Below, one piece after another: positions 16,594 through 18,946 of a stretch of 64,000 bases of DNA. Below the pieces are notes generated by a model. That model saw only the letters and a program-made list of their open reading frames with translations. It searched no databases and was not told the origin of the DNA. The translations under genes and the position numbers were made by a program. Origin of the DNA: Phyllosticta citribraziliensis. Taxonomy: Eukaryota. The DNA is taken from positions 248,001 to 312,000 of the forward strand of contig NW_027117342.1 in NCBI RefSeq assembly GCF_038025025.1, read 5' to 3'. The number at the start of each line of letters is the position of its first letter. The stretch's first letter is position 1.

Positions 16594-16900
16594 TCAGAGG
16601 TCGGAATCTTCGGATTCAATGCCGGCTTCGTACATGGCCTCCATTTCGATTTGCTCCCAGCCCGCGTGACCGGCTCCAGAGCTGAGACCTCGAGAATATC
16701 CACGGCCAAAGGATGGATTCCGAGGATTGATGGAAATGCCGGCAAAGGTGGCCCTGGCGCTCTCTCCGATCAATGAAGAAAAGACGAGCCATGCTGCAGT
16801 TTGGAGTTAGAGTTGACTGGCAAAATAGAGGAATGGCCGTACCAAACAATGCAAGCAATGGGAAGAATAGAACCAAGGCTAGAATGATCAAGACTCCCAT
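16594..16900 (-). CDS. Small (85 aa) spliced single-pass membrane protein of unknown function
   Basis: Exon 1 16900-16843, 49-nt intron 16842-16794 (GTACGG..CTAAC..CAG), exon 2 16793-16594. Product: MGVLIILALVLFFPLLALFAWLVFSSLIGESARATFAGISINPRNPSFGRGYSRGLSSGAGHAGWEQIEMEAMYEAGIESEDSDL. Confidence 0.7.
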
Positions 16901-17054
16901 GTTCGATTTGAATGTTTCTGAAATGTGTCGAGGATTGTGAATGAGTGGTCAGGCGGTTGGTGGTCAGGACCGCCGGCGGAATCCGGAAGGCCTGCCGATG
17001 TCCGTGCGCTCGGCTCCGGCCGACATTCTCCCGCGACACTCACTTTTCTCAACG

Positions 17055-18946
17055 ATGTCCGCCTCTTCTCCCCACCACCCGCACAATGTAGAAACCACAA
17101 ACAACGCCTCATTGAGGCACCACACAGGTACGCACCCTTCTTCTCCTTCCACCCTACCCATTTACATGATTAATGCAACTTATCAATCAATCTGTCAATC
17201 CCCTGAGCTCCAGAGCAAGACTCTGGACGTCGATGTCACACAGTCCTACTATGAATTATCCACAATACCCTCGAGTTGAAGAAAATTAAGCGAAACAAGC
17301 GACTAACTTTCGCAACAGATCTACTAGCAAGTCTTGCTGCCGAGATGAGTGGCCTCGCCCACGTCTTCCCGTTTCAAAGGGCGTCGACGCCTCCGCCTGT
17401 TGGCGAGGTGCAGGCACCAAGCCCGGAGCGAAAACAGATTCCTGCTGTCCTGGTCGACGAAGCCGAAGCTACTGTGGTACGGGGTGAAGATGCTGGCGAT
17501 GCCGCCCGGCCACAAGCGTCGTCTGCACTCATAGATGAGCAGATGCAGGTGTTTGAGCCGTTGGAGGTCGGAGACCTGACACCGGCGCCGAGTGAGCAGT
17601 CTGGAAGCAGCCCACGGAGGACACCCGAGGAAACCTCAAAGACCAAGTCGGAGGTTGCGCCTGAAGCAGAAAGGCTGGATGCACCTCGAGCAGAGGTCCT
17701 AGTGACGGATCCTCAGTCGCCCTCCACCTCGACACTCAGTGAAGAAACAACCCTTCCGTCTTCCACGAGCACTGGGGCACCGCACTCGAGTGCCTCCAGC
17801 GTGGAAGCAAGGCCCGTGCAACATAGCGTAGAGGAATCACATGATACGATCGAGTTTCCAGCATATTCATCCGCATTCATGCCTGCCAGTCCACCCACAC
17901 CCGTCTCTGAAATGCCTCCTCCAAAAGAAACACGACAGCAGCCGGCCCAGGCAACGGACGAAACCATCCAACCGGCTCATGCTCCATTCCCCATATCCCA
18001 CGTTGCCAAGAAGTACTTCATCCACGACCCAACCACCATTGCCCACGTCCGCCGCGAACACAACATGTGCGGCGTCCTCATCGGCACGCTTCCCAGCCAC
18101 CCTCAGCAAAACGTCTTCCTGGGCACGCCTCTCTCGCTCATGCCCGAGGAGGCGCGCCGGCTCGTCGAAATCGGCGCCGCGTACATCGTGGACGACACGG
18201 CCGCGCACCGGGCCGGCATGCTGGGCGGCGGCGTCCCCGAGGCCGAACGCAAGGCGTTTGCGCGCGCCGTGGAGAAGCAAGGCATCGACGCCATGCGCGC
18301 CTCGCAGAAAAAGGCCGACGACGTCAAGAAGGAGATTCTCAAGAAGAACGCCGAGAAGATTGCGGCTGCCAGGGAGGCCAAGCAGAAAGAGCGGCAGCAG
18401 AAGAGGGACAATGCGGCGCAGGCGCAGGGTCAGACCAATGGCGACGGCGACGGTGCATCCGAATCCCTCTTCAACGCGCCAGCACCACCGCGTCCCTCGT
18501 CGCCCGCGCCGTCCTCACTCAAGTCAGCCGCAACCGGCGAAGAGCGATACTACATCACACCCACGACATCGCACCCGCCGCTGCCGACGCCTCCCGCCTC
18601 TCCGCCCACGCCCTCCACGCCCTCAACGGCGCTGCTCCCGCCGGCGCCGTCGTCGTACCCGCTCTTCGCGTACCTGCACTCGCGCGGCTTCTTCATGACG
18701 CCCGGGCTGCGCTTCGGCTGCCAGTACACGGCGTACCCGGGCGACCCGCTGCGGTTCCACAGCCACTTCCTGGCCGTCGGCATGGGCTGGGACGAGCCGT
18801 TTGACTTGATGCGCTTGGTGGGCGGCGGCCGGTTGGGCACGGGTGTTAAGAAGGCGTTTTTGATTGGGGCGAAGGAGGAGGGAGATGGTGATGAAGATGC
18901 GGCGGAGGGCGTGCGGGCTTTTAGCGTGGAGTGGAGTGGCATGTAG
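17055..18946 (+). CDS. SEN34: tRNA-splicing endonuclease subunit Sen34 with a long acidic N-terminal extension
   Basis: Catalytic-region motifs PGLRFGCQYTAYPGDPLRFHSHF and GGGRLGTGVKKAF, and N-core RREHNMCGVLIGTLP..QQNVFLG. Putative exon 1 17055-17127 splices in frame across a 191-nt intron (17128-17318; GTACGC..GACTAAC..CAG). The true start codon is uncertain. Confidence 0.88.
17161..17259 (+). ncRNA. Intronic box C/D snoRNA; predicted guide for 2'-O-methylation of 18S rRNA at the U in GGA(U)UGACAGAUUGA (human Um1288 equivalent; SNORD110/snoR14-like)
   Basis: C box ATGATTA 17166-17172. Guide TCAATCTGTCAATCC 17187-17201 is the exact reverse complement of conserved 18S GGATTGACAGATTGA. D' box CTGA 17203-17206. 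7-bp stem TCCAGAG/CTCTGGA 17209-17227. Degenerate C' near 17230-17236. Candidate D box ATGA 17251-17254, about 50 nt before the branch point. Boundaries are approximate. Confidence 0.78.

Follow-up and report, generated by a model that had tools for sequence, protein, structure and literature searches.

The first intron of the tRNA-splicing endonuclease gene SEN34 in Phyllosticta citribraziliensis very probably encodes a functional box C/D small nucleolar RNA (snoRNA) of about 90-100 nt, an orthologue of Neurospora crassa CD44 (Nc CD44), Schizosaccharomyces pombe snR82, Arabidopsis thaliana snoR14 and human SNORD110. The intron lies in a stretch of 64,000 nucleotides (contig NW_027117342.1, positions 248,001 to 312,000 of the forward strand), which we call the window, and all positions below are counted from its first letter. 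The element had been proposed from the letters of the window (the original prediction), and the functional interpretation given there is supported by the analysis described here. The predicted 2'-O-methyl site is the first U of GGAUUGACAG in 18S ribosomal RNA (rRNA). The features are collected in Table 1.

The interval 17128-17318 is a real intron. RNA contigs of the runs X1, X3 and X4, which come from three studies, skip 191 bases, the length that had been predicted, with GT..AG ends, and join the exons at 17127/17319 (reported as 17123->17315, cut +4). The organisms of these three runs are coded A, B and C, and A is identical to the window across the covered parts. Read from the sequence, the GT is at 17128-17129 and the final CAG ends at 17318, which also gives 191 nt. 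In a further run, X6, the contigs cover exon 2 only and hold no joint.

Inside the intron, the C box, the 15-mer one base before CUGA, the internal stem and the candidate D box of the original prediction are all found, at the positions of Table 1. The GA core of the C box (positions 3-4) is intact, and its single deviation from the consensus is at position 6. A spacer of 14 nt separates the C box from the D' guide, the 15-mer at 17187-17201, which reads TCAATCTGTCAATCC as DNA and UCAAUCUGUCAAUCC as RNA; between guide and D' box there is one C (17202). With its 15 nt the guide is within the 10-21 nt usual for antisense elements of box C/D snoRNAs. Counting five bases upstream from D' leads to A17198, which stands opposite the first U of 18S GGAUUG, so the D'+5 rule gives the same nucleotide as in the original prediction. 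Downstream of D' follows a perfect stem of 7 bp, in which 17209-17215 pairs with 17221-17227 and which together with the flanking G-C pairs has a folding energy of -10.5 kcal/mol. There is no second CUGA in the 191-nt intron, and the AUGA at 17251-17254 is the sole further NTGA-type D candidate that is suitably placed. It is separated from the branch adenosine by 51 nt, where about 50 nt had been proposed. A7 of the C box is able to pair with U17250. We also considered an RNA of about 50 nt that would end with the CUGA at 17203-17206 as its D box; this was rejected, as the relatives and Nc CD44 run on to a C' and a second box.

Table 1. Features of the snoRNA, its host intron and the flanking SEN34 exons; positions are those of the window.
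Feature	Position	Strand	Basis and remarks
Box C/D snoRNA (very probable), orthologue of Nc CD44/snR82/snoR14/SNORD110	17161..17259	+	Covariance model R1; ends approximate, 5 nt outside each box
C box AUGAUUA	17166..17172	+	Sequence; consensus RUGAUGA, position 6 is U for G
D' antisense element, 15 nt, complementary to 18S GGAUUGACAGAUUGA	17187..17201	+	Identity with the Nc CD44 guide and the Rfam SNORD110 consensus
D' box CUGA	17203..17206	+	Sequence; invariant in related loci by construction of the scan
D'-C' hairpin, 7 bp, loop CAAGA (5 nt)	17209..17227	+	Fold, sequence
Probable C' box UCGAUGU	17230..17236	+	Position and alignment with UGAUGA/UUGACGA of the relatives
D-side spacer CACACAGUCCUACU, 14 nt, possible second guide	17237..17250	+	Position
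D box AUGA	17251..17254	+	Sequence; consensus CUGA, position 1 is A for C
Intron of the SEN34 transcript, 191 nt, GT..AG, host of the snoRNA	17128..17318	+	RNA contigs and sequence
Branch site ACUAAC	17302..17307	+	51 nt past the D box, 12 nt before the 3' splice site
Exon 1, RNA-covered part	17088..17127	+	Contigs start at 17088, 17089 and 17096
Exon 2, SEN34 open reading frame (tRNA-splicing endonuclease subunit) with N-terminal extension of ~222 aa	17319..18946	+	Pfam, PDB

The window element is a member of a family known from N. crassa, S. pombe, plants and humans. In N. crassa, northern blot and reverse transcription revealed Nc CD44, an intronic RNA of 85 nt (Liu et al. 2009, PMC2780460; GenBank EU780967 as given in its Additional file 1). 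That paper gives its D' guide as a 15/0 match to 18S-Um1227 and assigns a second, D-side guide to 26S-Cm776; the duplex is drawn with 15 bp against 18S 3'-AGUUAGACAGUUAGG-5', and Table 1 of the paper lists S. pombe snR82, A. thaliana snoR14 and human HBII-55 as homologues, with a dash for S. cerevisiae. The 15-nt D' guide, the spacer C and the D' box of Nc CD44 are letter-identical to those of the window element. Further, both have the first U of 18S GGAUUG as their predicted target, both are intronic, and both have the order C - guide - D' - C' - second spacer - D. There are also differences: Nc CD44 has canonical AUGAUGA, CUGA and C' UGAUGA, while the window element has AUGAUUA/AUGA and a degenerate C', and at 85 nt Nc CD44 lacks a D'-C' hairpin, while the window element has a 7-bp hairpin and about 90-99 nt. 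As regards a terminal stem, Nc CD44 as printed has hardly any flank outside its boxes.

For the human member, SNORD110/HBII-55 (Rfam RF00610), guide and D' box of the window (AAUCUGUCAAUCCCCUGAG) equal the consensus letter for letter, and both RNAs are intronic. The human host gene is NOP56, in contrast to SEN34 in the window, and the listed target is 18S U1288 (PMC5025248, Table 2); the human form further differs in that its boxes are canonical and that it has a terminal stem. For the same 18S site, S. pombe snR82 and A. thaliana snoR14 are listed as homologues of Nc CD44, and through this listing they are likened to the window element. The equivalence to the human Um1288 (SNORD110) and plant snoR14 sites, claimed in the original prediction, thus agrees with the listed homologues of Nc CD44 and with the target of SNORD110, and its guess that fungal orthologues may have been catalogued already was right.

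That the site is modified in a fungus is documented for S. pombe, where Supplementary Table 3 of PMC4605285 gives 18S Um1248 from mass spectrometry, with the fragments AUmUG and AAGGAUmU and 98% at 30 C. In the same table the earlier S. cerevisiae evidence for the equivalent of Um1248 is 'NA', and the number in the S. cerevisiae column is 1227, where the original prediction has U1231. A small RNA from a cDNA library of Trichophyton rubrum, TRnc_3297, is assigned to Rfam SNORD110 (PMC3890542, Table 2); in that table it has 138 nt, is placed in the '3'UTR' (untranslated region) and has no listed target, and it is likened to the window element by this family assignment. There is no mention of CD_44, SNORD110 or snoR14 in the main text of the fungal snoRNAome paper (PMC5824354), and none of 1288 or SNORD110 in the main texts of a human RiboMeth-seq study (PMC5027482) and a review (PMC8393311).

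Relatives of the element were collected from JGI metagenome contigs by an exact scan for the 20-mer formed by guide, spacer and D', with the spacer base left free. The 20-mer is present at 70 loci, corresponding to 46 distinct segments. In 43 distinct segments a C box is found 8-25 nt upstream of the guide, and 41 are complete as far as the D box. Of the 70 loci, 24 have a SEN34 homologue downstream in the same orientation, which begins about 170-200 nt after the guide and is 30-62% identical (tblastn with the window SEN34 protein). The guide is invariant while the host protein has greatly diverged, and we therefore take the guide to be under purifying selection. The intron layout is also similar: with a regular-expression heuristic, a 5' splice site is placed 32-57 nt before the C box in most relatives, and for 19 of the 21 fungal relatives the branch site lies 48-61 nt past the D box, compared with 51 nt in the window. 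The conservation of guide and boxes in relatives, which had been suggested as a check, is seen across the metagenome loci.

The D'-C' hairpin recurs in shorter form in the relatives with the closest SEN34, as GAC/GUC, AGGC/GCCU, AGGU/ACCU and AAGC/GCUU, where the letters have changed and the pairing is kept. In the other fungal subgroup a U-rich linker takes the place of the hairpin.

Could all this be chance, that is an ordinary long intron that happens to hold an rRNA-complementary 15-mer and some box-like words? Three of the 46 distinct segments (L005, L014 and L034) hold the 20-mer without box-like words and were taken as chance matches, so the 20-mer alone can arise by chance in very large collections. 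However, the 64 kb hold a single copy of the 15-mer, where shuffles give an expectation of 0.12 at up to 2 mismatches, the relatives share the boxes, their spacing, the host gene and the layout of the intron, and the window element scores about 20 bits over guide-only matches in the covariance model described below. We regard chance as having next to no probability.

A more serious worry, raised already in the original prediction, is that the C and D boxes are both non-canonical. In the kink-turn of a box C/D RNA, G3 and A4 of the C box form sheared pairs with A4 and G3 of the D box, U5 of the C box faces U2 of the D box, and position 6 of the C box forms a Watson-Crick pair with position 1 of the D box. 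The two deviations in the window compensate each other, because the U6/A1 pair, U-A, replaces G-C. The worry is thus answered by a compensated pair, and this pair is conserved in the relatives. The C box A[U/G]GAUUA is found in 22 distinct segments, two of which are cut off before the D box. An AUGA is present 30-42 nt past D' in 20 of 20 complete segments with a ..GAUUA C box, and the D box is CUGA in 21 of 21 segments with a ..GAUGA C box. One segment, L029, has an extra CUGA 9 nt earlier than its AUGA; homology with L011 argues against that CUGA. Counted by hand over the 41 distinct relatives, the combination at C6/D1 is U/A in 20, G/C in 21 and mixed in none.

The same pair was also studied in alignment A4, a covariance-model alignment of 41 distinct rows in which the C6-D1 pair is the only one annotated. 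Here C6-D1 is U-A in 21 rows, G-C in 17, A-U in 1, U-G in 1 and other in 1, in an alignment that is fitted to the model. A standard pair is present in 97.6% of the cells; shuffling lowers this to 48.8%, and displacing the partner by 1-3 columns to 10-56%. It should be kept in mind that the sequences behind the U-A/G-C covariation are related, and that independent changes are probably few. In a MAFFT alignment of the 41 distinct relatives (A2) the D boxes of the two classes fall in separate columns, and it was left out of the counts.

Both box states exist within fungi, as seen from L046 (AUGAUGAUUA with CUGA, beside SEN34) and from Nc CD44 (AUGAUGA/CUGA). The variant pair is also seen outside this family. 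Nc CD55, as printed, starts with ..AUGAUUA.. and ends with ..AUGAUUCCU (PMC2780460, Additional file 1); it has AUGAUUA and the same D variant as the window element but differs in being an orphan snoRNA, and the guide is not shared. More generally, according to the fungal snoRNAome paper (PMC5824354), the first C is replaced in 4.2% of fungal D boxes, usually by A.

Next, family membership can be assessed from scores. A covariance model, R1, was made from 21 fungal-type loci (alignment A3), with the window excluded. Against the 64 kb it gives a single match, at 17161-17259 on the + strand, over model positions 1-91/91, with 45.2 bits and an E-value of 7.7e-07, a score that is partly circular since the R1 loci were collected with the window's own 20-mer. 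The baseline for such a bias is given by the guide-only loci L005, L014 and L034, which reach 20.8-25.8 bits, and the 21 non-fungal-type loci, which are outside the model, score 34.1-48.2 bits. By these scores the window element is a clear yet relatively divergent member of the family. Rfam, which had been proposed as a check, finds nothing at the gathering score; below the threshold there is a match to SNORD110 in which guide and D' equal the consensus. Five further Rfam matches (ZNRD1-AS1_1, MIR2933, freshwater-1, Methylosinus-1 and sR39) are far under their thresholds and were taken as chance.

In addition to the fitting of alignment A4 and the relatedness of its rows, a number of observations weigh against a functional snoRNA at this place. 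The complementarity between guide and 18S is judged from the 18S of other species. At gathering score Rfam has 0 matches in the 64-kb window, and the SNORD110 match, obtained at E up to 10 on 16900-17500, has 19.7 bits against a threshold of 64 (E 0.32 in this 601-base search) with an alignment that covers guide and D' only and leaves out the C box. With R1, the training loci reach 59.7-87.3 bits and the window with its 45.2 is lower. The C' box is degenerate: it retains only the GAUG core and deviates at positions 2 and 7. There is no terminal stem of 4-5 bp at the boxes, where the flanking bases are unpaired, and the minimum-energy fold joins the boxes only via a 6-bp outer stem in the intron flanks. 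The fold of the whole intron is no better than that of shuffles: z is -1.39, and 17 of 200 shuffles equal it. The D-side spacer CACACAGUCCUACU matches neither D-guide type of the relatives, and it is also unlike the D guide of Nc CD44 (..GUCCAAGGCUU, for 26S-Cm776). Finally, no run showed a small RNA, although the contigs of all four runs are assembled and without the intron, and hence mute on small RNA.

Much of this could be expected from a decaying relic, that is a descendant of CD44 with weakened boxes that forms no stable snoRNP (the ribonucleoprotein particle) or RNA, the 18S site being unmethylated or guided from elsewhere. The window is the lowest-scoring of the fungal SEN34-linked members, its D-side spacer and C' are unlike those of all relatives, terminal stem and fold signal are both missing, and small-RNA evidence was not found in the four runs, which consist of assembled contigs only. 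However, AUGAUUA/AUGA is the rule among the complete distinct fungal relatives (20 of 20) and hence no sign of decay. The kink-turn positions (GA in C, GA in D, U.U and the U-A pair) are all intact, and all 20 letters of guide and D' are kept in an intron that otherwise cannot be aligned with the relatives. The higher scores of the relatives are, moreover, inflated by their having trained the model. A relic is therefore quite improbable in our view.

A functional box C/D snoRNA directed at 18S would work in four steps. In the first, transcription yields the SEN34 pre-mRNA and splicing removes the 191-nt intron, as seen in the RNA contigs. Snu13, Nop56, Nop58 and fibrillarin/Nop1 would then assemble on the AUGAUUA/AUGA kink-turn, as suggested by the covariation and the general geometry of such turns. 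Thereafter the debranched lariat would be cut back by exonucleases to the boundaries of the snoRNP, following the general pathway. A distance between D box and branch site of the size found here is what splicing-coupled snoRNP assembly prefers; such assembly fits the window element because its D box is 51 nt from the branch point. In the last step the 15-nt guide would pair with 18S GGAUUGACAGAUUGA, and fibrillarin would methylate the 2'-OH of the first U, opposite A17198; this step is predicted from the D'+5 rule and the identity to published orthologues.

The second half of the element is more variable. Among the fungal relatives the D-side guide is ..UCCAAGGCUU in one group and ..AUGCUAUGCUCUUU in another, and it is conserved within each. 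The corresponding 14 nt of the window may either serve as a second guide peculiar to its lineage or be without a target. As this spacer is seen in no relative, it could guide a methylation specific to the lineage of the window. Its complement was not found elsewhere in the 64-kb window at up to 2 mismatches.

This variability leads to another reading, in which the snoRNA is functional but has its main role elsewhere, for instance through a D-side spacer that directs a methylation peculiar to the lineage on another RNA, or through an effect of the intron on SEN34 expression, and 18S methylation is secondary. A D-side guide that varies between fungal sub-lineages yet is conserved within them indicates that second guides are used and replaced, and the linkage to SEN34 is retained in 24 of the 70 loci. 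On the other hand, the D' guide is the sole part that does not vary between fungi, the green-lineage-like loci from marine samples and the human consensus. Nor is the host link obligatory: at L048 the snoRNA is present and SEN34 is absent within 2.5 kb downstream. A main role elsewhere appears very improbable, and the 18S guide is still the function that we prefer.

L048 belongs, together with L006, L011 and L019, to one fungal-type lineage that has AUGAUUA/AUGA and a D-side spacer of its own (L048:338-417). Downstream of the snoRNA in L048 there is a frame of 214 aa without a Pfam match, and NPR2 is on the opposite strand. Apparently, the host gene has changed in this lineage.

Two other groups of relatives can be described. 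Near-identical sequences from aquatic metagenomes, with canonical UGAUGA/CUGA, make up 28 of the 70 loci (L003, L004, L010, L020 and similar). They share a conserved D-side guide, ..UAUAUGGUGCCCUUCCA, a terminal stem of the GCGC type (about 5 bp) can be made out by eye, and they are probably from non-fungal eukaryotes. In several SEN34-linked relatives, long outer stems formed by the intron flanks can be seen by eye, GGAGG/CCUCC in L001 and L009, and in L007 a stem in which CAGACGCGGC is paired with GCCGCGUCUG. The outer stems of L001, L007 and L009 would unite C and D instead of a terminal stem; the counterpart in the window, with 6 bp, is weak.

The identity of the host gene comes from exon 2. 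In the frame 17319-18946, Pfam finds the tRNA intron endonuclease catalytic domain (PF01974, E 7.4e-13), and each of the top six matches among PDB sequences is a Sen34 (best E 1.1e-27). This conserved body is separated from the snoRNA intron by a transcribed, low-complexity stretch, the N-terminal ~222 aa (17319-17984). In all 24 metagenome SEN34 relatives the homology begins at query residue 157-226 (at 223-226 in 23 of 24), directly after their intron. In this N-terminal stretch 18 of the 30 sites that vary among X3, X4 and X6 are at the third codon position (p 0.0025), and X6 has a 21-base deletion that is in frame. Because of the third-position bias and the in-frame deletion, the stretch looks like real coding sequence.

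The contig ends upstream of the intron are not mapped transcript starts, and two of the contigs beginning at 17088-17096 carry adapter letters as loose ends. Upstream of the contig-covered part there is an in-frame ATG at 17055, which would read across the splice into SEN34. The candidate start codons of SEN34 are 17055 and 17346, and the snoRNA intron is accordingly in the coding sequence or in the 5' untranslated region.

Among papers covered by their title or the start of their abstract, we found none that links a snoRNA to an intron of SEN34; the supplementary family lists of the fungal snoRNAome (CD_44) lie outside that coverage. Possibly, then, three things are unrecorded: the conserved SEN34 host link, the clade-wide AUGAUUA/AUGA kink-turn, and the replacement of the second guide between sub-lineages. 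That these together amount to an unreported packaging in a fungal clade, where an 18S guide sits in an intron upstream of SEN34 with a constant AUGAUUA/AUGA kink-turn and a D-side guide that is swapped between sub-lineages, is an idea that we hold tentatively and consider rather doubtful.

For the fungus itself, the annotation gains one snoRNA gene and a predicted ribose methylation of 18S, and the finding means little beyond that. It also accounts for the length of the first SEN34 intron, which is 3-4 times that of a minimal fungal intron because of the snoRNA inside. The element is a worked example of how non-canonical C and D boxes are best judged as a pair. The AUGAUUA/AUGA clade is missed by scanners that require RUGAUGA and CUGA, and by the metazoan-seeded SNORD110 model of Rfam. 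Specialists on fungal snoRNAs may find some use in two minor evolutionary points, the conserved link to SEN34 as host and the way in which the second guide turns over.

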